A DNA stretch of 64,000 nt from an uncultured Anaerolinea sp. (GCA_964453115.1 CAYVRT010000012.1:33264-97263), one strand, 5' to 3'. Shown: positions 53,154-64,000, counted from the first letter of the stretch. Numbers and translations are program-made. The notes: generated from the letters alone by a model not told the origin.

Positions 53154-53270
53154 GGGAGCAACGACCTTGCCCTTCAGTGGGACTGAAAATGTGAGACCAT
53201 CCAAGATTGAGTAACAAAAACCATCGCTTTGAACGATGGTTCTCGATACAGTCGGGGCGAGAGGATTTGA
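53154..53270. repeat. direct repeat copy 1 (117 bp, identical to 53286-53402)
   Basis: Base-by-base comparison shows 117/117 identity at an offset of 132 nt. It contains a copy of the last 19 nt of tRNA-Pro plus its terminator hairpin and 60 further nt. Confidence 0.95.
53213..53241 (-). terminator. duplicated copy of the tRNA-Pro terminator hairpin
   Basis: Same sequence as 53345-53373: AACCATCG-TTCAAAG-CGATGGTT followed by TTTGTT on the minus strand. Confidence 0.6.
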
Positions 53271-53285
53271 TAGCACCCCTCGATG

Positions 53286-53458
<173 letters not shown>

Positions 53459-53462
53459 ATTG

Positions 53463-53487
53463 ATTATATTGAACGCCGGTTATTATA
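53463..53487 (-). promoter_or_regulatory. two TATAAT-like boxes upstream of tRNA-Pro
   Basis: The reverse complement shows TATAAT at 53482-53487 and at 53463-53468. No convincing -35, so this is tentative. Confidence 0.3.
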
Positions 53488-53519
53488 CCGCGTTTTCAAA
53501 ATTTGGGGAGGGTTTTCCC

Positions 53520-54269
53520 TTAAGTTTCAGGAACATGCCCGAGCGCGTAAAACGTGGGAATATAGAGCAATCGTTCGCCGCGCGCTCGCGCCTCTTGTTC
53601 TGTTTGTTGTAAGGCGTCCAACTCTTGCGCTGAGCAAAGGGTTTGCAAATCTTCGCGCAGCACAAGCCATTCCAATTCATCGGTTGAGGGCATGGATTGG
53701 TGATCCCAAAAACCGCCCAGCACACCGCTTTGCACCTTTTGCAGCCCGGCCTGCTGAAACAGGCTGCCCAGACTGCGACCGATGCATGGCTGCGCACCTT
53801 GCTGCCGGAGTGCCTCGGTTTGTAACTGTCCCAGGCTTGAAAGGCTGGGTGGGTAATCAATCCGTCCACCATAGTCGGGTTCTGCCAGGGCAAGGATCAT
53901 TCCGCCTGGGACGGTGACGCGGCGCATTTCGCGCAGTGCGGCGAGCGGGTTTGGTAGCCAAAGGAGCAGAAAATGACAAAAGCTCAGGTTGAATGCGGCG
54001 CTGGCAAAAGGCAGGTTGCATGCATCGCCGGCGGTGAATGCAGCGCGGGGGATGACTTGCCGGGCAAAGTGCAGGGCCATCAGGTCATGATCCAGGCCAC
54101 AGGTCAGCGGATTGGTAGAGACTTCACCAAGCAGCGCACCGGTTCCGCAGCCAAGGTCGAGAACGCGGCGGGCAGTTTCAAGCTGTGCTTGCGCAAACAG
54201 GTGCTGGCGCAAGGTCTGTGTCCAGCGAGCTTGCTGCTGATAGCGAGCGTGCCAGTCTTTCAGGTTCAC
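53520..54269 (-). CDS. class I SAM-dependent methyltransferase (operon gene F)
   Basis: VLDLGCGTG motif I and a downstream acidic/aromatic motif pattern. The GTG start forms a GTGA overlap with the stop of gene E. Confidence 0.8.
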   Translation of the reverse strand: MNLKDWHARYQQQARWTQTLRQHLFAQAQLETARRVLDLGCGTGALLGEVSTNPLTCGLDHDLMALHFARQVIPRAAFTAGDACNLPFASAAFNLSFCHFLLLWLPNPLAALREMRRVTVPGGMILALAEPDYGGRIDYPPSLSSLGQLQTEALRQQGAQPCIGRSLGSLFQQAGLQKVQSGVLGGFWDHQSMPSTDELEWLVLREDLQTLCSAQELDALQQTEQEARARGERLLYIPTFYALGHVPET

Positions 54270-55435
54270 AGCCGGGTGCGGGCTTTTTCCCAGATTGTGT
54301 TCCAGTCGTCATTGAGCAGGTTGCCAAGGACGTGTTCGAAGCCTTGACCAGGCAGCACATCGCCATCTGGCTCGACATACAACCAGGCGCGTCCGGCACC
54401 TTCAATCGGCGTTTCACCCTCGGACAGCTCCAGGCTGAGTGGGTGGAAACTGGAATAGGGGACAGGTAAATCCCAGGTCAGTGAAAGGCCGAGCAGGAAA
54501 GCCAGATCCCGCAAGGTGTTAAGCGCCGGGCGCAGCTCAGCGCTGTTGGCACTGAGCGAGAGCGAATGGACGCCCATCTGATGCAGCTTGCGGATCAGAT
54601 CTTCGACGCTGCTCTGGTTATTTGGGGTGAGGGTGATGTGAACGGTGATGAAGAGATCCTGAGCCAGGACATCGCGCAGGGCCTCCCATGAGATTTCAGA
54701 AGCGGGGTCGAGGATCAGCATCAGGTGATCGAGGCCGCTTTGCAAGACTTGTTGCAAATAGTTTGGCTCGCAAAGCCGCTGTCCATCGCTGAGTAGGCCG
54801 GTTACCTGTCCGAGTTGTTCGGCGTGAGCAATCAGTTCGGGCAGGTCAGGGCGCAGGGTTGGCTCACCGCCAGTGAAGATGATATGCGGAATGCCGGCCT
54901 GCCAGGATTTGCTGAGGATGGTTCTCCATTCTTCAGTTAGCAGTTCTCGCGTAACCCGGGTGGTGGGTGCCAGGTCGGGGGCAAGGCCTTCGCTCAGGCG
55001 ATAGGTGAGGGCACAATCCAGGCGGTAGGGGGCGGTCAGGGCGCGGGCATAGGGATCAACACGTTCGAAGCCGAGGAAGGTTTCGGGGTCGAGGTCGGGG
55101 GTTTCTATCAGTGTGTGCAAACGTTCTTGAAAATCGTTGAAATCGTTGGCGGCCTGGGCGCGTGAGACGCGGTAGCGCTGTGAGACCAGGTGTGCGACCT
55201 TCTCGGCAGGGGTTTGCTGAATTAGATGATAGGCATATTCGGCGGCGGTTTCGTTCAGGTGTAGAACGGTGCTGGCGTTCAGAATCAGCAGGGCATCGCT
55301 GCTTGCATCCACGCGCAAGTGCAAACGGTAGGGCGGTTGTACCTCAGGGGGGGATTGATAGGTGTAGATGCCGGGGGCCAGACGGGTTGGATGGCCAAAG
55401 AGGCGATCGAGCAAGGTGCTGAAGGCGCGTTTCAT
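54266..55435 (-). CDS. PqqD-like domain + degenerate radical-SAM/SPASM paralogue lacking all Fe-S cysteines (operon gene E)
   Basis: 389 aa, collinear with gene C (LAPGIYTY, RLHLRVDASSDALLILNASTVLHLNETAAEY, GIPHIIFTGGEPTLRPDLPELIAHAEQLGQVTGL, YVEPDGDVLPGQG). The CxxxCxxC position reads YRLSEGLAPD (54974-54997) and no SPASM Cys remain. GGAGG RBS before the ATG at 55435. Confidence 0.8.
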   Translation of the reverse strand: MKRAFSTLLDRLFGHPTRLAPGIYTYQSPPEVQPPYRLHLRVDASSDALLILNASTVLHLNETAAEYAYHLIQQTPAEKVAHLVSQRYRVSRAQAANDFNDFQERLHTLIETPDLDPETFLGFERVDPYARALTAPYRLDCALTYRLSEGLAPDLAPTTRVTRELLTEEWRTILSKSWQAGIPHIIFTGGEPTLRPDLPELIAHAEQLGQVTGLLSDGQRLCEPNYLQQVLQSGLDHLMLILDPASEISWEALRDVLAQDLFITVHITLTPNNQSSVEDLIRKLHQMGVHSLSLSANSAELRPALNTLRDLAFLLGLSLTWDLPVPYSSFHPLSLELSEGETPIEGAGRAWLYVEPDGDVLPGQGFEHVLGNLLNDDWNTIWEKARTRL

Positions 55436-55445
55436 GGTAGACCTC

Positions 55446-56990
55446 CTAGGGAGTAGGAACAGTTGGGAAAAGGAATTGATTGAATAGAATGGCAAGCAAG
55501 CAGACGATGGAGAGGAGAATGACGCTGATGATGATGGCAACAGTTAGCCATTTTGAGGATGTGGAGGGTTTTTCGGGTTGGGCAGAAACCGTGAGGGCGT
55601 CGAATTCTTCTGGTTTTCCAATCAGTCGGTGGCGGCGGAAGAAAAGAATGAAGAGCAGGTAAGGCAGGCCAAAGAGAAAAACGCTCAGAGCAAAGAGCAG
55701 GTTGACAGCAGTTTGCAACTCGCGGTTGAGCAGGCCGGTGAGGGCATCGCGCTGATTGATGGAAATGAGGGTGACGCCAAGGACGGATAGCACGAGGCCA
55801 AAGCCGAGTAAAATGCGGCTGCTGCGCGGCGCCAGTTTGCCATCTTTTTCGGAAAGGCGCACGCCCAGGCTGAGGGTGCTATGGGCAATCAGTGCTGCAA
55901 AGACGAGCAGCGAAGGGCCAAGGCCGATTTGTTCGGTTGTAAACTCGAGCGGGTCGTAGATGTTGGTGCCGCCCAGGGCCAGCACCAGACCCAGTGTGAA
56001 GGCCGGTGAGGCAATGCTGACCGCCAGCCAGGTGGCAGCGTTGCGGGCATTCCAACGCCGGGCAATGAGCAGAATGGCAGCAACAATCAGCACCGGGAGC
56101 GAGAAGAAGAAGTCGAGCCCAACGGTCATGGTCAATGGGCCAGGTTCGGGCAATTCACCGCCACCCGCTTTGAGGATGTCGTTCATGGCGAGGATCAGGG
56201 CCAGGGTGGGGCGGGTGATGATCAGAAAGGCAGATAATGCCTTGAGAACATCATCGCCGAAGCGCTTGCGAACCAGGTTGATAAAACGTTTGCCAAGGTC
56301 TACGGCGGCATCTACAACGGCCAGGCCGGAAGCCAGCCAGAGTGGGATGAGCAGGAAGGAGATGAGGGCAAAGATGCCGCTCAGGTTGGAGGCGAGTTGG
56401 GACAGGCTGCCACTGCTGAGGGCATAGAGCAGGAAGAAAAGGCCGGTGATACCGAGCCAGATGAGGAATTCGCCAATTTGGAAGTTCTTCCAGAAAGGTT
56501 TTTTATAGGTGAAGAGGTGTGTGGTTGTGCTGCCAATCCATAGCAGCGGGGCGGTGCAACACCAGGCCAACATGGCTGCGTTTTGTTCAAGAGGCATAAC
56601 ACAGAGCAGTTGTGCGCCGAATAGTAGAACGATGGGAATGAACAGAACCGGGTGACCATCTGTGGCGCCGGTGAGCAGGAAGGCCCAACTGAGCGCCATT
56701 GCCAGCAAGCCGGCAATGAGTGCAAGGATGGGGATTTGTTGCAAGGTGGGCGAATCGCCGGGCGGGGTGAAGACAATTTGTGAGATGTTGTGCTGGAAAA
56801 TTTCGGTGATGAAGACCGAAGAGAGCAGGATGGCAACCGAGGTGTAGCCGATGATGCTGAGGATGCGAATCTGCCGCGGAAATTCTTTGAGGTTGTGAAA
56901 GGCTTCCTCAAATGGAATCAGGTAGAAGTAGTAGGCAAACCGCCAGATGAGGTTGCCAATGAAACGAAGGGAGGTGAAAAGACGGTTCAT
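55446..56990 (-). CDS. polytopic integral membrane protein of unknown function (operon gene D)
   Basis: 514 aa from the ATG at 56990 (ATGA overlap with the gene C stop). About 12 or more hydrophobic segments. No motif I recognise. Confidence 0.7.
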   Translation of the reverse strand: MNRLFTSLRFIGNLIWRFAYYFYLIPFEEAFHNLKEFPRQIRILSIIGYTSVAILLSSVFITEIFQHNISQIVFTPPGDSPTLQQIPILALIAGLLAMALSWAFLLTGATDGHPVLFIPIVLLFGAQLLCVMPLEQNAAMLAWCCTAPLLWIGSTTTHLFTYKKPFWKNFQIGEFLIWLGITGLFFLLYALSSGSLSQLASNLSGIFALISFLLIPLWLASGLAVVDAAVDLGKRFINLVRKRFGDDVLKALSAFLIITRPTLALILAMNDILKAGGGELPEPGPLTMTVGLDFFFSLPVLIVAAILLIARRWNARNAATWLAVSIASPAFTLGLVLALGGTNIYDPLEFTTEQIGLGPSLLVFAALIAHSTLSLGVRLSEKDGKLAPRSSRILLGFGLVLSVLGVTLISINQRDALTGLLNRELQTAVNLLFALSVFLFGLPYLLFILFFRRHRLIGKPEEFDALTVSAQPEKPSTSSKWLTVAIIISVILLSIVCLLAILFNQFLFPTVPTP

Positions 56991-58339
56991 GGGTGGGGTG
57001 GGAGATGATTTCGTTCGAGGGGGCAGCCGCCGCCGCATTCAGGCAGCAGGCCGCAGGTTTGACATTCGGCTGGCAGGTTGCGCCGTTCGCGCAGGCTCAA
57101 TGCCAACTCGTGATTCCAGATGGCTTCCCAGGGTGTTTCGAGAATGTTGCCCAGGCTGGTGTAATAGGACTGACAGGGCAAGACGCTGCCGTCGGATTCA
57201 ATGCACATATTGTAGAGCGCAGCAGTGCAGCCTTTGACGCCCAAATCCATCTGGACGGGGTCAAAGTGGCAGTATTGGGTTGGTGTGTACCAGATCAGTC
57301 GCTGCCCTTGCTGCTCGGTGAGGGTACGGGCCATTTCCAGCAGGGCGGGCAAATCGCCGGCAGGTAATCCGCTGCCAACGCGAGCGCCATGACCGGCGTA
57401 AATGAGCGCATTCAGACCAATGGTTGGCACGCCCAATTGACCGAGGAATTGCAGGGTTTGGAATAAGAAGCGGCTATTGCTTTGCAGCATGGTGGTGTTT
57501 GTCATAACGTATAGGCGGGAGGTGAGGGCGTTTCGGATGCCGGCAACGGTTTCTTGCCAGGCGCCGGGTGAGCGCACCATGCGATCATGAAGGATGGGGT
57601 CGTGCGATTCGAGTGTGATTTGCACGTGGTCCAGGCCGACATTGACCAGGCTTTGCAGGTAATTGGGGTCGCTCAGGCGACGGCCATTCGTGTTGAGGCC
57701 GGTGATTTGTCCGAGCTGTTCGGCGTAGGCGATCAACTCGGGCAGGTCGTCGCGCAGGGTGGGTTCGCCACCGGTGAAGACGATGTGCGGAATGCCAGTT
57801 TGCCAGAGCTTGTCGAGGATGCGTTTCCAGGTTTGGGTGGAGAGTTCGGGGTGGTTGCGCGGGCGATCATTGTAACAATGAGCGCAGGCATTATTGCAAC
57901 GATAGGTGATGGCCAGGTCCATGCGGTAGGGCGCGCTGGGGTGAGCAGAAAAAGGGGCGGTAGTTTCCAGATCCAGCTCGCAGACCGGGCAGGGGCCATC
58001 GGGGTCGAGCAGGGCTTCTAATTTGCTGCAAAAGTCTGCGTAATCCTGGCGGGCCTGGGTTGGTGTGACCTGATAATGGCGCACCAGGGCGTTTGTGGCT
58101 GTGCGTGGGGGAACTTGTTGTAGGATGAGGTGGGCCATGAAAGCTGCGCTGGGGTTGAGGTGCAGGAAACGGGCAGCATTGATGATCAGCAGGGCGCTGC
58201 CATCACTTTCCACGCGTAAATGCAGGCGGGCGCGTCCTTGCTGGCTGTGGCGCTCAAAAGAGTAGATCCCGGGTGCGAGGGCCTGCTGGGTGGGGCGGGG
58301 GCGCAAAGCACCCCGAAGCTGCTCAAGCCAAAATGGCAT
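56987..58339 (-). CDS. radical SAM / SPASM maturase with N-terminal PqqD-like (RRE) domain (operon gene C)
   Basis: 450 aa from the ATG at 58339. N-terminal LLIINAARFLHLNPSAAFMAHLILQQ...QVTPTQARQDYADFCSKLEALL resembles PqqD. CNNACAHC (57875-57898) is CxxxCxxC. GGEPTL SAM motif. C-terminal CIESDGSVLPC ... CQTCGLLPECGGGCP (57023-57229) fits the SPASM Cx2Cx5Cx3C pattern. Confidence 0.9.
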   Translation of the reverse strand: MPFWLEQLRGALRPRPTQQALAPGIYSFERHSQQGRARLHLRVESDGSALLIINAARFLHLNPSAAFMAHLILQQVPPRTATNALVRHYQVTPTQARQDYADFCSKLEALLDPDGPCPVCELDLETTAPFSAHPSAPYRMDLAITYRCNNACAHCYNDRPRNHPELSTQTWKRILDKLWQTGIPHIVFTGGEPTLRDDLPELIAYAEQLGQITGLNTNGRRLSDPNYLQSLVNVGLDHVQITLESHDPILHDRMVRSPGAWQETVAGIRNALTSRLYVMTNTTMLQSNSRFLFQTLQFLGQLGVPTIGLNALIYAGHGARVGSGLPAGDLPALLEMARTLTEQQGQRLIWYTPTQYCHFDPVQMDLGVKGCTAALYNMCIESDGSVLPCQSYYTSLGNILETPWEAIWNHELALSLRERRNLPAECQTCGLLPECGGGCPLERNHLPPHP

Positions 58340-58341
58340 GG

Positions 58342-60045
58342 TTACCTGCCACCGCCGGCACAGGCGCAGGCACAGCCGGCGCATGCACAGGCACAGGCGC
58401 AAGACCGTCCACTGCCGCCGCCGCCCCGTCCACGCGACGAGCCACTGCTGCTGCTGGTTGTTTGTGGAACGGGATTGGTGCGGTTGGTGATGCCGCTGGT
58501 GAAACTGGTCACATCGCCCACAATATCGGAGGAAAGGTTCTGAACGCTGTTAACGACGCGTGCGGCAAAATCGGAGCCGGGCAGGTGAGGCAGACTGGTG
58601 GGAGCGCTGGAAGCTGCTGCTCCGCCGCCCTGGAAGGCGGCTGGTGCTGCGCCGCTGATGGGGCGGGCAAAGGTTGGGTCGAGCCGTGACCACCAATTGG
58701 GAATGTAGACCGGGCTGCTGGTGAAGACTTCGCGGGTACGGCGGTCATAATCACGGTCGAGCATCGTCCAGCCAAGCAGTTCATCGTAACGCTGGCTCTT
58801 AACTTCGGGAGTGTTGGCTGCCTCGACCTGTTCCCATGCCTTTGCCATGATGCTTTTGTAATATTCGAGAGTTTCTTTGCGGCTGAAGCCTTTCATCTTT
58901 TCGCCCACGCTTTTGACCAGTGCGACGACCATGGATTGAAGGGCCTTTTGGCGTGCTGTGCCCTCTTTTTCTTTGAACGCATCCAAAAATTCGATTTCGT
59001 AGGGTTGGAGCGTTTCGGGCAGCGGGTCAGAGCGTTCCAGGGTTAGAGGTTTGGGACTGGTGATGGTTGCGGCACCTTTCTTCAGAATGCTGAAGAGTGT
59101 CATTGTCAGGACTTTGTCGAGTGGTTGCTCCATCAGGATGGCAGCCTCGATGGCGGTCAGGCCGCGCTTGATGCCGTGTCCTTCAACTGAGATGCGGGGG
59201 GGCATGTATTGCAGGCGGCGCTTTTTGGCTGCCTGAGCACTGGTGATGCTGATGAAGGCGATGAAGCCAGCAAATCCGGCACAACAGCCAACCGAAAGGG
59301 CTGTATCCGTGTCAATGCCCAGGCTATCCCACAGTGTTGGGCGTTTGAGAACGCCCTCTGGCAGGATGCGCGCCGGAAAGGAGGCACCAAAACGGTATTT
59401 GCTGATGGTGTTGGCCTCTGTGCTGCGCCAGCGATAAAAAACATTGCCTTGCTGGTCGTAGCCCGATTCGGGCTCGGCAGCCCCGGGCCAGCCAGAGGGG
59501 GTAAAGTAGCGTGGCTCTTCTGGTTCAATGCCGGGGGGGAGGTGCAGGGTGAGGGTGTAATCGGTATTTCCGGTAACCAGGCTGGAGTCAAAATAATTGG
59601 GCTGGAAGTTGAAACTGGCATAGTCTTGGTTGTTGACTGGTTTGGTGAAGAACAGCATACCTTGAATGTCCGTGATTCGGGCATGGAAGGTGCCTTTTTT
59701 GCCGGGGGGAATCGAGTTGGTGCCCAGGCCAAAGGCAATGCCGTTATCAATGTAGGTTGAGGTGCTGATATCGGTGATCTTTTTCCCGTTTACATCGGCG
59801 CTGGCATTGGATGTGCTGTATTGACGGGTGGGCATGCCAATATCCACATACTCGATTGCTGCGCCGCTGGGTTGGTTGGCGAAGACGTAGACGTAATCTA
59901 GCGTGGCGGTGCCATCGGCCTGGATGTACAGGTGAACATCGGCGCGTTCAACGGCAAAGTAATAGGATTGAGCAGAGGCGCGAACAAACGAACCGGCCAG
60001 AGCAAACAAAATTAAAAAGATAGATAACCAACGAATGAGGCGCAT
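58342..60045 (-). CDS. DUF2207-like single-pass membrane protein with C-terminal Gly/Ser-rich and (Cys-Ala)n tail (operon gene B)
   Basis: 567 aa from the ATG at 60045 (GGGAG 6 nt upstream). Signal peptide MRLIRWLSIFLILFALAGSFVRASA. Ectodomain start YYFAVERADVHLYIQADGTATLDYVYVF is DUF2207-like. TM ALSVGCCAGFAGFIAFISITSA. The RGLTAIEAAILMEQPLDKVLTMTLFSILKKGA and LQPYEIEFLDAF segments are also DUF2207-like. It ends ...SSSSGSSRGRGGGGSGRSCACACACAGCACACAGGGR. Confidence 0.75.
   Translation of the reverse strand: MRLIRWLSIFLILFALAGSFVRASAQSYYFAVERADVHLYIQADGTATLDYVYVFANQPSGAAIEYVDIGMPTRQYSTSNASADVNGKKITDISTSTYIDNGIAFGLGTNSIPPGKKGTFHARITDIQGMLFFTKPVNNQDYASFNFQPNYFDSSLVTGNTDYTLTLHLPPGIEPEEPRYFTPSGWPGAAEPESGYDQQGNVFYRWRSTEANTISKYRFGASFPARILPEGVLKRPTLWDSLGIDTDTALSVGCCAGFAGFIAFISITSAQAAKKRRLQYMPPRISVEGHGIKRGLTAIEAAILMEQPLDKVLTMTLFSILKKGAATITSPKPLTLERSDPLPETLQPYEIEFLDAFKEKEGTARQKALQSMVVALVKSVGEKMKGFSRKETLEYYKSIMAKAWEQVEAANTPEVKSQRYDELLGWTMLDRDYDRRTREVFTSSPVYIPNWWSRLDPTFARPISGAAPAAFQGGGAAASSAPTSLPHLPGSDFAARVVNSVQNLSSDIVGDVTSFTSGITNRTNPVPQTTSSSSGSSRGRGGGGSGRSCACACACAGCACACAGGGR
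58357..58401 (-). repeat. imperfect (TGY-GCN)n codon repeat encoding CACACACAGCACACA
   Basis: Codon-by-codon reading of 58345-58404 on the minus strand shows 7 Cys alternating with Ala/Gly. The same DNA produces AQAQAQ and LCLCM strings in other frames of the ORF track. Confidence 0.9.
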
Positions 60046-60068
60046 AGAGGGCTCCCTTCGGGCGAAAC

Positions 60069-60449
60069 TTACCACTTTGGTTCTTCACTAATTTGATAGG
60101 TCGTTTTGCAATAGGGGCAGCTGACCATCGCGGCACCGTTGACGACTTTGATGTCATCGCCGGAGAGAACGCCACCGCAAGACTGACATTTGATCGTTTC
60201 CATGGCAACTTTGCCGGGGAGGTCAATTTTCAGGGTCACCTGTTGGGCCGCGGCGGGCGCTGCCGGGGTGAGAAAACGCAAGGCAACAAAAATAAGGACG
60301 AAACTGATCCCAACCAAAATTAACCCGGTCAGGATGAGGCCGCCTGGCGTGCCTTGCGCTTCGGGGCTGAAGGCGGCGAGAATGAACAACACACCAAACA
60401 GCAGCAGAATGGCTGCAACAATCAGGGCGATGATTTTGAGAACTTTCAT
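60069..60449 (-). CDS. two-TM protein with C-terminal zinc ribbon (operon gene A)
   Basis: 126 aa. GGAGG 7 nt upstream of the ATG at 60449. TMs IIALIVAAILLLFGVLFILAAF and LILTGLILVGISFVLIFVALRF. C-terminal CQSCGG...CPYC. Confidence 0.7.
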   Translation of the reverse strand: MKVLKIIALIVAAILLLFGVLFILAAFSPEAQGTPGGLILTGLILVGISFVLIFVALRFLTPAAPAAAQQVTLKIDLPGKVAMETIKCQSCGGVLSGDDIKVVNGAAMVSCPYCKTTYQISEEPKW

Positions 60450-60544
60450 CAGAATACCTCCGAGGATACATATAGTTTAGCATATTCTGGAAAAAACACT
60501 GTAGCAGATTTTGTTTTCTCTTCCCAACACATCGAGAGCGCTGC

Positions 60545-60573
60545 TTGACGTGCCGTTCCGGAAAGAGTATCAT
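60545..60573 (+). promoter_or_regulatory. candidate sigma-70 promoter for the cyclase-ATPase-TPR gene
   Basis: TTGACG (60545-60550), 17-nt spacer, TATCAT (60568-60573), about 43 nt upstream of the ATG at 60616. It lies in the 166-bp divergent intergenic region shared with the rSAM operon. Confidence 0.45.
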
Positions 60574-60615
60574 TTCTTCGTGTGGCAATCAGAAAAACAG
60601 AAAGAGCCCTGTTCT

Positions 60616-63600
60616 ATGAAAAATCTTGTCCCGCTTTTCATTCAACAACAATACCGGCGGCGTTGCTTTGCTGGGCAGATGCAAGCTGCCAGTATGTTTG
60701 TGGATATTTCTGGCTTTACGCGCATGACCGATGCGCTGATGCAGCATGGCAAAGAGGGTATTGAGACACTTTCTGATATTCTTGGTTATATTTTCGACCC
60801 AACCGTTCGCAGTATTTATGCTGCTGGTGGTTTCATTTCTACCTATGCTGGAGATGCATTCACGGCGCTTTTTCCAGCTTGTGCAGATTCCAACCAGGCG
60901 GCGCTGCGTGCCCTTTCCGCCGCACAGGAAGTTGCCCGTTTTTTTCAAACAGGCGGTGTATATGCTTCGGCACTGGGGCAGTTTTCCTTTTCGGCGAAAA
61001 TTGGGCTGGGTTTTGGGGAGGTAGAGTGGGAGATTTTGGGGGATGAGGGTTCTCGGTTGTTTTATTTTCGCGGCGATGCAATAGATGCTTGTGCGCAGGC
61101 TGAGCATTATGCCGAGTCGGGTGAACTTTGGGCCGAGCAAACCTTTTTGGCACAGGCGGCACTGAGCAGCCCTAGCCGGACGCAGGGCCGTTTTGCGCCG
61201 ATTGCAACCTTCCTGGAGCAGCAGAATGCGCATCTGGAGATGGAACCACTCCTCTTTTCTGAGCAGGAAATGCGCTTGTTTGGTGGCGAAGACGAGTTTC
61301 AGTTCCCGGAAGGTGAGTTTCGTGAGGTTGTTTCAGTCTTTATTGCCTGGGAACATTTGCCACATTTGGCTGATTTTGTCTATTCTGCATTGCAATTGCA
61401 GCAGCGTTATGGGGGCAGCCATTTGCAGTTGGATTTTGGCGACAAGGGCAGCAAGATGTGGCTGTTCTTTGGTGCCCCAGTGACGCATGAAAATAAGGAA
61501 GAACGAGCATTACAATTCATTACCGAACTCTGGCGGCAGATGCCGACTTCTGCGCGGGCAAGGGCTGGAATGACACGCGGGGTCGTATATGCTGGTTTTT
61601 ATGGCGCAGCTTTGCAGCAGGCTTTTTCTGGTCTGGGCAGTGCGGTTAATCAGGCGGCGCGCTTTATGGCGCGAGCGGAGTGGGGGCAGGTTTTGGGTGA
61701 TGCGAACCTGGCAAAAACGCCGGGTTATTCCTTTACCTTTTTGGGCGACTTTGCTTACAAGGGGCGTTCCCAGCTCATCTCAACCTATGCATTGCGCACC
61801 GATTCTGTATCAGTTGAGCCGCCGCCGCACCTGTTGCAATCTTTGCATTTGCTCATTGGCCGTCAGAGTGAATTGCAATTCTTGCACAATGCCTTGCAGC
61901 CGCTTCAAATGGGGCAATTTGGCGGTGTGCTATATGTGGATGGCGAAGCAGGGCTGGGTAAAAGCCATTTGCTTCAGGCTTTCAGGCAGCAAATCTCCCA
62001 ATTCCAATGGTTTGTTTTGCCCTGTGATGAGGTGCTGCGCAAAAGTCTCAATCCATTGGTGTATTTCTTGAAACAATATTTTGAGCAAAGAGAAGGCGAT
62101 TCTTTGGAGCAGAATCAGCAGCATTTTGAAGAGCATTTCAATCATCTCTTTCAGCAAGTGCGTGACCCTGATTTGAAACGGGACTTGAAACGAGGTCGCT
62201 CTTTTTTGGCGGCTTTGTTGCAACTTCCTGAGGAAGACAGCCTCCGACAATTGGACGCACAAGCCCGTTATGAAAGCACCCTCGATGCCTTGAAAGTGCT
62301 CATCAAGGCTGAAAGTGCCCGGAAGCCGGTTGTTCTTTTCCTGGAAGACGCTCATTGGGTAGATCCCGACTCGCTGGAGTTCTTTCGTTATCTGACCCGG
62401 AATGTGGAAGCAAGCCCCTTCTTGTTGCTGACAGCTTGTCGCTATCAGGATGATGGCGCACTTTTTCACCTTGCTTTGGATGCAGAGGTCCCGGTGCAGC
62501 GTTTGACATTGAGGCCGCTTGCGATGGCGGAAGCGGAAAAGCTGATTGCCTTTACGCTGAAGCAACCCAATTTGCCTGTGCCTTCAACAACGCTGGCCTT
62601 CATTCATCAGCGCAGCGCTGGCAACCCATTTTTTATTGAGCAAATCAGCCTGTATTTGAAAGAAAATCGGTTGTTGGATGATCAAAATAACCTGGATGAG
62701 CGTGTGATCAGCGGTCAGGCTGAATTGGAAATACCCAACACCATCAATGCCATTCTGGTGGCGCGCATAGATCGCCTGGCCGTTGAACTGAAGAAAATTG
62801 TCAAAACAGCTTCGGTGTTGGGGCAGGAATTCGCCGCAAGCATTCTTTCCACTATGTTGCAAAAGACAGGCGACTTGCCAGCAAAAACGCTGCAGCGCTA
62901 TTTGGTTGCTGGGGAAGAGCAGACCATCTGGCAGGCGCTTTCTGAATTGCGGTATATCTTCAAACATGCTTTGATCCGCGATGCGGTTTATGGCATGCAG
63001 CTGAAAAAACAACTGCGCGCTTTGCATCGGCTGGCTGGCGAAACGATCGAAGAACTTTTTCGTCAAGATTTGAAACCCTACTATGTGGATCTGGCTGAGC
63101 ATTATGAAAAGGCGGCCCTGCCTGAAAAAGCCATTCTCTATCTTACCCTGGCTGGACAGGATGCCCTCGAGTCCTACCGCAATCAGCAAGCGGTTGCACT
63201 CTACGAACGGTTGCTCAAGCATCCGCTTGAAGCTGAGGCGGAATTGCAAGCCTGGGAAGCCAAAGGACGGGCGCAACGTATGGCGGGGGATTGGGACGGG
63301 GCAAAACAAACCTGTGCGCGGATGCTAGAGCGTGCTGAAGCGCTTGCTGAACCGCATTGGCAGGCAAAAGCTGCCAATGCTCTGGCTTATTTCTTGCTTG
63401 CGCATGGGGAGATAGATCGGGCATTTGCGGTGGCAAAGCGCGCCCAAACACTGTCCATTCAAATCGGCGACCGCTTTGAGCAGGCGCAGGCACTGCGCAA
63501 CCTGGGGCTTGTTTGCATCAAGACCGGTGAATGGGAGCAGGCGCGGCAGATCCATACTGAACTGCTGGCATTGGCAAAGGAGATTGACGACCTGAACTCG

Positions 63601-64000
63601 ATTGTTTCGGCATTGTTTCAGTTGCGAGAACATTTGTTGGAAGAAGGCAATCTGGTTGCCGAATTTGAAACGTACCTGCGTCGTGCCGAAGAGAAAAAAG
63701 ATTTGCGTTTGATGAGTGTGATTTTGTTTTATATCGGGGATGTGTATCTGCTGCAGCGTAATTATGCCGCTGCCGAGCAGACCAATCGTCGGATGTATGA
63801 AATTGTTGATCAAATTGGGGATAAGCAGGGCATGTGCTATGCCATTGGTGACCGAGGCATTGTGCTTTCGGAGATCGGCCGGTTTGAAGAAGCGATTGAA
63901 TGCTACCGCGAAAAACTTGTTCTGGCGCGTGAAATTGGCGATGGCTATAATATTTGGGAGGGGCTTTTCAATTGGGCGTCAGCAGAAACGTTTCAAGCAC
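60616..64000 (+). CDS. multidomain regulator: tandem class III nucleotidyl cyclase domains + P-loop NTPase + TPR repeats (3' end beyond window)
   Basis: Not in the ORF track because no stop falls inside the window. I translated frame 60616+3n by eye to 64000 and saw no stop (1128 codons). Motifs: SMFVDISGFT and YAGDAFTALF (domain 1), GSAVNQAARF (domain 2), Walker A GEAGLGKS (61942-61965), LFLEDAHWVD (Walker B-like), then TPR-like repeats (ALRNLGLVCIKTGEWEQA, IGDRGIVLSEIGRFEEAIECY). Confidence 0.85.
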   Translation, partial: MKNLVPLFIQQQYRRRCFAGQMQAASMFVDISGFTRMTDALMQHGKEGIETLSDILGYIFDPTVRSIYAAGGFISTYAGDAFTALFPACADSNQAALRALSAAQEVARFFQTGGVYASALGQFSFSAKIGLGFGEVEWEILGDEGSRLFYFRGDAIDACAQAEHYAESGELWAEQTFLAQAALSSPSRTQGRFAPIATFLEQQNAHLEMEPLLFSEQEMRLFGGEDEFQFPEGEFREVVSVFIAWEHLPHLADFVYSALQLQQRYGGSHLQLDFGDKGSKMWLFFGAPVTHENKEERALQFITELWRQMPTSARARAGMTRGVVYAGFYGAALQQAFSGLGSAVNQAARFMARAEWGQVLGDANLAKTPGYSFTFLGDFAYKGRSQLISTYALRTDSVSVEPPPHLLQSLHLLIGRQSELQFLHNALQPLQMGQFGGVLYVDGEAGLGKSHLLQAFRQQISQFQWFVLPCDEVLRKSLNPLVYFLKQYFEQREGDSLEQNQQHFEEHFNHLFQQVRDPDLKRDLKRGRSFLAALLQLPEEDSLRQLDAQARYESTLDALKVLIKAESARKPVVLFLEDAHWVDPDSLEFFRYLTRNVEASPFLLLTACRYQDDGALFHLALDAEVPVQRLTLRPLAMAEAEKLIAFTLKQPNLPVPSTTLAFIHQRSAGNPFFIEQISLYLKENRLLDDQNNLDERVISGQAELEIPNTINAILVARIDRLAVELKKIVKTASVLGQEFAASILSTMLQKTGDLPAKTLQRYLVAGEEQTIWQALSELRYIFKHALIRDAVYGMQLKKQLRALHRLAGETIEELFRQDLKPYYVDLAEHYEKAALPEKAILYLTLAGQDALESYRNQQAVALYERLLKHPLEAEAELQAWEAKGRAQRMAGDWDGAKQTCARMLERAEALAEPHWQAKAANALAYFLLAHGEIDRAFAVAKRAQTLSIQIGDRFEQAQALRNLGLVCIKTGEWEQARQIHTELLALAKEIDDLNSIVSALFQLREHLLEEGNLVAEFETYLRRAEEKKDLRLMSVILFYIGDVYLLQRNYAAAEQTNRRMYEIVDQIGDKQGMCYAIGDRGIVLSEIGRFEEAIECYREKLVLAREIGDGYNIWEGLFNWASAETFQA

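Follow-up and report, generated by a model that had tools for sequence, protein, structure and literature searches.

Six consecutive minus-strand genes, A to F, span positions 53520-60449 of a 64,000-nucleotide (nt) stretch of DNA from an uncultured Anaerolinea sp. (GCA_964453115.1, CAYVRT010000012.1:33264-97263; the whole of this stretch is referred to below as the window), and we consider it probable that they are one case of a widespread protein-maturation system, in which the radical S-adenosylmethionine (SAM) enzyme encoded by C modifies the cysteine-alanine (Cys-Ala) tail of the membrane protein encoded by B, with the participation of F, E and A. Namely, the tail is the sole invariant stretch of B, it is under selection at the level of amino acids, it defines the B family and it is linked to C in both directions, and it is from these properties together that we infer it to be what C modifies. 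What is more, no conserved small open reading frame (ORF) offers an alternative substrate, and C carries an above-threshold PqqD-type recognition element for peptides that are synthesised on ribosomes and modified after translation (RiPP recognition element, RRE), which is a peptide-binding domain. A preliminary description of the same DNA had proposed the tail as the substrate; its invariance, the selection acting on it and its two-way linkage to C lend substance to that proposal, with the enzyme-substrate relation itself being our reading of them.

Homologues of B number more than 3900, none of them named. The best 120 of these, at an overall identity of about 50%, carry no Pfam domain, and the few with a source name are called 'hypothetical protein'. 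In these 120, which were used for comparing the tail, the exact 19-residue C-terminus CACACACAGCACACAGGGR is present 118 times; it also closes the four B orthologues examined first. In an alignment of 60 B sequences, all 19 columns of the tail are invariant at a mean column identity of 55%, and no other stretch of the protein is fully so. Moreover, the same peptide is encoded by 67 distinct DNA sequences among 70 genomes, synonymous sites varying freely, which argues that selection acts on the peptide and not on a DNA repeat; an origin of the tail as a simple repeat at the DNA level was rejected on the same grounds. Within the window, the coding pattern of the tail occurs once, with zero occurrences expected by chance. 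A C-terminal sorting signal was also considered and rejected, the tail being cytoplasmic and following a long soluble domain.

The tail is also what holds the wider family together. A profile search of 1.84 billion cluster representatives returned 1139 B-family clusters (50% identity) at E<=1e-3, 448 of them at E<=1e-30, and C-x-C-x-C is the ending of essentially every full-length member of the best 150, the remainder being fragments. Here, x is Ala and sometimes Val, and two-residue interruptions occur occasionally. Three variants can be told apart: one in which x+3 CA units flank a central Gly; one with x+4 units, found in planctomycete-type loci together with a different upstream motif, TGDhhxAL; and an uninterrupted (CA)5-6 run, found in most archaea. 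Some genomes hold two tail-bearing B paralogues, which stand in tandem in L098 (66-1514 and 1533-3482).

The segment some 25-80 residues upstream of the tail (LPGSDFAAS...FTSGITNKTNPVP) also holds invariant residues in the 60-sequence alignment, namely P489, G490, A494, F515, T516, T520, T523, N524, P525 and P527, and a ...TNPxP motif recurs among bacterial and archaeal B proteins. On the strength of this conservation, the pre-tail segment (B residues ~486-527) may be a recognition, or 'leader-like', sequence. In the AlphaFold2 model of B (mean predicted local distance difference test score, pLDDT, 80), a signal or anchor helix is followed by a beta-sandwich ectodomain (residues 30-225), a single transmembrane (TM) helix (246-278) and the residues KKRR, and then, on the cytoplasmic part, by a winged-helix domain (298-338), a helical bundle (348-441) and a disordered stretch. 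Two amphipathic helices (490-523) cover the conserved pre-tail segment, and a disordered Gly/Ser spacer, variable in sequence, leads to the tail. Given the signal or anchor helix, the ectodomain, the single TM helix and the KKRR that follows it, the tail is predicted to be cytoplasmic and hence to share a compartment with C, E and F.

What B is beyond its tail can be said with less precision. The preliminary description had called it DUF2207-like, with a (Cys-Ala)n tail. The tail and a colinear series of matches to the DUF2207 N- and C-terminal models and to TIGR04222 hold up, all of them, that said, below threshold: PF09972 reaches 16.5 bits against a cutoff of 24.4 (E=0.01) and PF20990 12.7 against 33 (E=0.1), and matches at E<=1 to these two models appear in just 3 and 9 of 60 B members, respectively. 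With the architecture also being the same (an N-terminal ectodomain, a TM helix, a winged-helix-like domain in the cytoplasm and, at the C-terminus, a Gly-rich tail of low complexity), a remote DUF2207-like relationship is plausible. What sets B apart from DUF2207 proteins is that its tail has a fixed sequence, (Cys-Ala)n...GGGR, and is coupled genetically to a radical SAM enzyme. Foldseek searches with the model gave matches to ribophorin I and to the N-domain of M1 aminopeptidases, which are matches of fold only (ectodomain and overall layout) and from which function was not read; a profile search of the PDB with the B alignment gave no meaningful match. DUF2207 itself is not known to have a mechanism, and a literature search on it gave only a phenotype study in Streptococcus mutans (PMC10457818).

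The linkage between the tail and C was followed in both directions. In the first, a back-translated CACACAGGGR-stop pattern was scanned against one genome per GTDB species, and the tail was found in at least 120 species genomes; the 120 tail-seeded loci, which are arbitrary blocks of 8 kb or less, were then searched with the window proteins by tblastn and phmmer. Among the tail matches listed, each lies at the C-terminus of a B-like ORF wherever that ORF is not cut by the end of a block or contig, and the full-length tail-bearing ORFs measure about 450-1090 residues, mostly 500-700. Bacterial carriers belong to the Anaerolineae and other Chloroflexota, Planctomycetota, Acidobacteriota/Aminicenantes, Fermentibacterota (Sabulitectum, Hyd24-12), Hydrogenedentota, Zixibacteria, Coatesbacteria, Myxococcota and Clostridia, and archaeal ones to the Methanomassiliicoccales, other Thermoplasmatota, and Heimdall-, Hod- and Promethearchaeota; Ornatilinea apprima P3M-1 (L063) and Leptolinea sp. 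HRD-7 (P0173) are examples of carriers that have been cultured. Of the 120 loci, 88 contain an orthologue of C (40-68% identity), and in most of the remaining 32 the sequence breaks off on the side on which C should lie. The linkage is seen in Chloroflexota, Planctomycetota, Acidobacteriota, Fermentibacterota, Hydrogenedentota, Zixibacteria, Methanomassiliicoccales, Thermoplasmatota and Asgard archaea, and the C orthologues of the groups that it spans are just 41-47% identical to the C of the window. In a Planctomycetota metagenome-assembled genome with two B copies on separate contigs, only one copy (L086) adjoins C and F; the other (L034) is the second copy of that genome.

In the reverse direction, a profile built from ten phylum-spanning C orthologues retrieved 80 metagenome loci, 64 of which are informative in the sense that upstream sequence is present. 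A tail-bearing B lies upstream of C in 63 of these 64. In 58, an ORF ending in the tail stops 0-186 nt before C; of the remaining six, one shows a variant ending in ...GGSR, in four a transposase-like insert has pushed B away from C, and one begins inside such an insert. In other words, a B protein ending in (C-x)n...GGGR and adjoining a gene of the C clade is found in the window and in nearly all loci reached from C, just as it is in the 88 loci reached from the tail. The insert itself, about 0.7-1.7 kb long, sits exactly between B and C in L164, L172, L180, L193 and L198 and so interrupts a junction that is otherwise tight; the motif ...WWNYWDTCIRSE.DYY..LRY.FWNP.KHGLV marks the conserved protein that it encodes, which resembles the tyrosine transposases of the REP-associated or IS200 type.

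Conservation of synteny, which had been set beforehand as a test, is likewise found. Anaerolineae and many other carriers show the order A-B-C-(E)-F; in planctomycete-type loci it is A-C-C'-B-F, where C' is a second radical SAM-like gene, and in Asgard archaea it is B-C-F, without A. Three long Anaerolineae contigs carry A-B-C-E-F without D, the neighbouring genes being unrelated (one contig has mreB/minCDE there, the others ligA), and B-C(-F) recurs in at least 10 further phyla of bacteria and archaea. Throughout the class Anaerolineae, the cassette is kept at 55-68% identity, a conservation that, judging by these sequences, looks like that of housekeeping genes. The six-gene unit of the preliminary description must be redrawn as four core genes and two additions: the core is B-C-F, usually with A, while E is an Anaerolineae-type partner and D a lineage-specific accessory insert. 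In a neighbour-joining tree of C orthologues, clades track lineage, and the tail variants fit these clades loosely.

Protein C has the make-up expected of a maturase of this kind. It matches three Pfam models above their cutoffs, namely PqqD PF05402 (26.5 bits, cutoff 23.4), Radical_SAM PF04055 (88 bits) and SPASM PF13186 (41.8 bits, cutoff 21.5), so that its earlier designation as an RRE-radical SAM-SPASM enzyme with a full set of cysteines is borne out. The radical SAM motif CNNACAHC (C148-x3-C152-x2-C155) is invariant in the ten phylum-spanning orthologues, as are the seven SPASM cysteines 357, 371, 389, 426, 429, 435 and 439. Between the RRE and the radical SAM core lies a CPxC pair (DPDGPCPVCELD; residues ~117-123, window 57970-57990), which is present in many, not all, orthologues as CPIC, CPTC or CSTC, with CPVH in L004, and which may form an additional metal site. 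Among solved structures, C is closest to SkfB (E 6e-17) and PqqE. Family models from Pfam and NCBIfam (June 2026) place it in no characterised maturase family, in agreement with what had been supposed: none of the six window proteins reaches an NCBIfam cutoff, the top matches of C (NirJ2, AhbC/D and PqqE) all fall far below theirs, and the archaeal and planctomycete orthologues of C, scanned in the same way, also give nothing above cutoff. Neither Pfam nor NCBIfam has a model that covers A, B or D.

An RRE-radical SAM-SPASM enzyme together with a methyltransferase and membrane proteins is the typical make-up of a RiPP cluster, and one could therefore think of a classical cluster with an overlooked short precursor, B, A and D serving transport or immunity. 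However, no family of small ORFs (20-110 residues) is common to more than 11 of about 120 related loci, and the families that do turn up look like out-of-frame or antisense artefacts; the absence of a short leader-core ORF, already remarked upon in the preliminary description, thus extends to the related loci. Furthermore, intergenic space in the window amounts to just 0-23 nt, there is no protease or ABC exporter, and the class-wide, housekeeping-like conservation in Anaerolineae differs from the patchy occurrence of RiPP clusters. This explanation was accordingly rejected, and we regard it as highly improbable. Set beside other RRE-radical SAM-SPASM maturases, C has the CxxxCxxC motif, the SPASM domain and the PqqD-like RRE, and what is absent is a separate short precursor gene, the putative leader-like segment and core lying instead at the C-terminus of B.

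In the mechanism that we propose, C would dock through its PqqD-like RRE on the conserved pre-tail segment of B and would act on the Cys-Ala tail by 5'-deoxyadenosyl radical chemistry, in cis, the tail being still part of the full-length membrane protein. Thioether cross-links from Cys sulfur to carbon, of the sactionine or ranthionine type, would tie the tail into a compact knot, which might bind metal. The thioether chemistry, which we hold to be the likeliest, is a guess, drawn by analogy with characterised SPASM enzymes that handle Cys-rich cores (sactipeptide and ranthipeptide synthases, QhpD), and it is a matter of speculation that a hairpin at the central Gly would set each Cys opposite an Ala. 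E would act as a non-catalytic partner or scaffold of C, and C' in planctomycete-type loci likewise as a non-catalytic partner; F would add a methyl group, possibly to a thiol or to the free carboxylate of one of the invariant C-termini; and D would be an accessory insert. The parts given here to A, E and F are ones that we infer. A more far-reaching version of the same idea, which we hold tentatively and would put at somewhat less than an even chance, is that C and F turn the tail into a new protein-borne structure tethered at the cytoplasmic face, be it a thioether ladder or a Cys-derived metal-binding or redox cofactor, by a pathway that is ancient or has been widely transferred and that many anaerobic bacterial phyla would have in common with archaea, Asgard lineages included.

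Several points weigh against tail maturation by C. The best NCBIfam matches of C are not thioether enzymes, and SPASM similarity is in any case no predictor of reaction type. Four loci (L011, L038, L088 and L120) have B without C within 3-4 kb. The C-terminus of A, as discussed below, is also conserved. Finally, the tail could be a metal or iron-sulfur (Fe-S) module or a docking site instead of a substrate.

This last point can be developed into an explanation of its own, namely that the tail stays unmodified and works as a module that binds metal or Fe-S in the manner of a metallothionein or serves as a redox relay, or as a docking handle for the RREs of C and E, tethering to the membrane a radical SAM/methyltransferase complex that acts on another substrate, such as a lipid or small molecule. 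Indeed, the seven cysteines, spaced i,i+2, would all point to one side of an extended strand, as happens in metal-binding proteins rich in CxC; the solved relatives of C include the lipid-modifying radical SAM enzyme GDGT-MAS, and BlsE; its top NCBIfam matches are tetrapyrrole enzymes; and the closest NCBIfam matches of F include quinone and lipid methyltransferases. Members of DUF2207/TIGR04222, to which B shows weak matches, often have Gly/Cys-rich low-complexity tails without any radical SAM enzyme, which also counts for this explanation. However, PqqD-type RREs are known for presenting peptide substrates to a fused or partner enzyme, the exact tail sequence is kept (Ala, central Gly and GGGR), beyond a mere count of cysteines, and no conserved genes of a small-molecule pathway surround the cassette, whose flanks differ between genomes. 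We therefore consider an unmodified tail unlikely.

Gene A raises a different question. It had been described as a 2-TM zinc-ribbon protein, and this stands: Pfam zinc-ribbon matches are weak, and CxxC...CxxC is present in 69 of 69 orthologues. It also ends in PKW in 68 of the 69 (mostly as EEPKW), from Anaerolineae to Methanomassiliicoccus and Pirellulales, and this conserved end makes A a possible second substrate or partner. Could the C-terminus of A (...EEPKW-COOH) then be the substrate, or one of two, carrying for instance a Lys-Trp cross-link of the StrB/SuiB type, with B as partner or second substrate and with C and E binding one tail each? A is first in the operon and membrane-anchored, its C-terminus is predicted to be cytoplasmic, and SuiB and WgkB are among the weak relatives of C. 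That said, A is not found beside B-C-F in the Asgard loci L032, L044, L070 and L100 despite 2-4 kb of upstream sequence, lineages with a single radical SAM gene keep both A and B, so that there is no one-to-one relation between RREs and tails, and C is no closer to KW-crosslinking enzymes than to other SPASM families. We find A as the substrate quite unlikely, and return to B as the candidate.

E is a paralogue of C, with 37% identity over 395 residues. It matches Radical_SAM at 36 bits and PqqD PF05402 at 25.4 bits (cutoff 23.4), with SPASM below threshold, and, aligned pairwise with C, it keeps the RRE and the motif GGEPTLRPDL and has neither CxxxCxxC nor any SPASM cysteine. The preliminary description had it as a cysteine-less paralogue; the loss of all Fe-S ligands is confirmed, whereas E does have two cysteines, of which C141 is the single invariant one across 120 orthologues. 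In the same 120, the motifs RLHLRV, NASTVLHLN, FTGGEPTLRPDL and YVEPDGDVLP are nearly invariant. Homologues of E run into the thousands at 55-62% identity, all in Anaerolineae/Chloroflexota, and this strong conservation of a family that has lost every Fe-S ligand points to a conserved pseudo-enzyme. Planctomycete-type loci (L066, L060, L071 and L106) encode between C and B the radical SAM-like paralogue C', which also has no CxxxCxxC and which, unlike E, keeps the terminal CxxCx5Cx3C motif of SPASM. Since C' and E would both be dead, the loss of radical SAM function in the partner paralogue appears to be either repeated or old.

F matches Methyltransf_11/25 and is a class I methyltransferase, in keeping with the SAM methyltransferase of the preliminary description, and its orthologues adjoin B and C in bacteria and archaea alike. 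Its best solved relative is LahSB, in a match that is confined to the SAM-binding core and is a lead rather than an assignment; LahSB is a C-terminal carboxyl methyltransferase of lanthipeptides (PMC11285071).

D is of another kind. It is a polytopic membrane protein, in keeping with the preliminary description, and it does not belong to the conserved unit. Namely, only 6 homologues were found in 5.8 billion clusters, one of them between C and E in a relative (L126) and another alone beside priA (L127), and none of the 120 tail-seeded loci contains a match. From so few and scattered homologues, and from their absence in the 120 loci, we take D to be an accessory gene inserted at a hot spot, outside the core. 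Its AlphaFold2 model, built on 6 sequences, is of low confidence (pLDDT 58). Elsewhere in Anaerolineae (L010, L017, L021, L052 and L073; also L012 and L101), the C-E junction is occupied by other accessory genes, encoding a conserved 113-residue PAS-like protein, a protein of about 335 residues, or both. The former matches PF08448 at 21 bits, just under the cutoff, and may be a sensor or regulatory add-on; the latter has a C-terminal TM helix and belongs to no Pfam family.

How does this cassette compare with systems already described? The maturases of sactipeptides and ranthipeptides (SCIFF), such as SkfB, AlbA, CteB and PapB, share with it the RRE-radical SAM-SPASM architecture and a Cys-rich core peptide. 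Nevertheless, the C of the window scores 70.2 against a cutoff of 625 for StsB and 70.8 against 300 for the sactisynthase SkfB, and the archaeal orthologues (AlbA, 56-81 against 850) and the Heimdall orthologue (PapB, 72.5 against 340) also stay below cutoff. In addition, the candidate substrate here is the C-terminus of a ~570-residue membrane protein, while theirs is a peptide of 40-60 residues, and the present cassette has neither protease nor exporter, includes a dead paralogue, and is conserved lineage-wide and in both domains.

Closer in type of substrate are anSME, which converts Cys/Ser of sulfatases to formylglycine, and QhpD, which introduces thioether cross-links into the Cys-containing QhpC subunit, as these are SPASM enzymes working on a full-length protein and not on a released peptide. 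In contrast to the substrates of anSME, the tail has no C/S-x-P/A-x-R motif, and there is no sulfatase gene nearby; in contrast to QhpD, there are no quinohemoprotein amine dehydrogenase genes nearby. Neither family is among the best 25 of the 71 NCBIfam matches of C (E<=0.01), and C differs from both in bearing a fused PqqD RRE.

PqqE/PqqD and MftC/MftB resemble C in pairing a PqqD-type RRE with a radical SAM-SPASM enzyme that works on a ribosomal product at its C-terminus or close to it. Scores are, however, 112-152 bits against a cutoff of 381 for PqqE TIGR02109 (112.5 for the C of the window) and 81-106 against 265 for MftC TIGR03962 (80.7 for the C of the window); there are no pqq genes (pqqA/B/C) in the window flanks or related loci and no mft genes (mftA/D/E/F), and the tail has none of the Glu/Tyr or Val-Tyr target residues of pyrroloquinoline quinone and mycofactocin. 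The systems that Haft defined in silico by co-occurrence (ACGX-repeat TIGR04340, GeoRSP, FxSxx-COOH) likewise combine a radical SAM/SPASM enzyme with short Cys repeats or a free-C-terminus motif. Archaeal and bacterial C orthologues score 55-79 against 400 for TIGR04340 and 93-125 against 400 for GeoRSP; the repeat here is CA, not ACGX, and the carrier protein and accessory genes differ. Finally, the pseudo-SAM/SPASM protein TIGR04347 of Haloarchaea is like E in being a conserved radical SAM/SPASM-like protein minus the radical SAM cysteines. E scores 34.7 bits against its cutoff of 525, and also differs in having an RRE and no SPASM cysteines. Full-text literature searches for the tail motif, for Cys-Ala repeats or for such a system found nothing relevant.

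The positions of the genes and of the two segments of B are collected in the table below. All six genes lie on the minus strand, and the junctions were read directly from the minus strand of 53300-60800, which confirmed them as previously described. Namely, the start of A is preceded by GGAGG; A and B are separated by 23 nt containing GAAGGGAG, and B and C by 2 nt; C and D overlap in ATGA; D and E are 10 nt apart, with TAGGAGG straddling the stop of D; and E and F overlap in GTGA. Promoter-like and terminator-like matches within the gene block show no excess, their counts being equal to those in shuffled-sequence controls. This lack of internal signals fits a single operon, for which it is weak evidence.

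Features of the operon and its immediate neighbour, in coordinates of the window
Feature	Position	Strand	Description
Gene A	60069..60449	-	126 residues; two TM helices and cytoplasmic CxxC...CxxC zinc ribbon; C-terminal motif ...EEPKW
Gene B	58342..60045	-	567-residue DUF2207-like membrane protein with Cys-Ala tail
B tail, residues 549-567, CACACACAGCACACAGGGR	58345..58401	-	7 Cys; putative core (substrate) peptide
B pre-tail segment, residues ~486-527 (LPHLPGSDFAA...FTSGITNRTNPVP)	58465..58590	-	putative recognition ('leader-like') sequence
Gene C	56987..58339	-	450 residues; PqqD-like RRE, radical SAM core and SPASM; putative maturase
Gene D	55446..56990	-	514-residue all-helical polytopic membrane protein; lineage-specific insert at the C-E junction
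Gene E	54266..55435	-	389-residue paralogue of C; conserved pseudo-radical-SAM partner
Gene F	53520..54269	-	249-residue class I SAM methyltransferase, cassette-specific
tRNA-Pro(GGG)	53383-53458	-	follows gene F

Some observations on the surroundings may be added. Just beyond the tRNA-Pro(GGG) gene, on its downstream side, 117 nt are repeated perfectly in direct orientation (53154-53270 and 53286-53402, spacing 132 nt), with the second copy taking in the last ~20 nt of the tRNA gene; a tandem duplication could account for this, or what is left of an integration at the tRNA. In locus L001, a tRNA-Pro gene likewise comes after F. Divergent from the operon, an open frame of at least 1165 codons occupies ~60500-64000 on the plus strand and runs off the end of the window; judged by eye, it seems to have an adenylate/guanylate-cyclase-like N-terminus followed by an ATPase and tetratricopeptide repeats, and GC content falls to 0.50-0.51 across it. 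The GC skew of the plus strand is positive in every 2-kb step of the whole window (1-64000), at +0.08 to +0.28. At third codon positions, plus-strand genes have a skew of +0.3 to +0.5, and minus-strand genes one of -0.13 to -0.5 (about -0.4 in 7 of the 8 sampled). As these values change sign with the strand of the gene, the asymmetry tracks the DNA strand and not gene orientation; it is an unusually large bias of the replication-strand type.

Taken as a whole, the system resembles RRE-dependent maturation by radical SAM/SPASM enzymes, and differs from it in the type of substrate, in the dead paralogue, in its conservation and in its spread across domains. RRE-bearing radical SAM/SPASM enzymes have been mined almost solely as makers of small secreted peptides, whereas the core peptide here would be the last 19 residues of a ~570-residue membrane protein. 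The system is present in more than 10 phyla of bacteria and archaea, Asgard archaea included, and we found no curated model or publication describing it. The hypothesis lends itself to testing, given a short substrate fragment, soluble enzymes and the existence of cultured carriers. If the tail is modified, this would be a new post-translational modification of a protein, on an unusual alternating Cys-Ala sequence, and there is a substantial chance that the chemistry of the product is new. If our reading is true, it would also provide a natural case of an active radical SAM enzyme paired with a conserved dead paralogue, as well as the first mechanistic lead for DUF2207/TIGR04222 membrane proteins with low-complexity tails.

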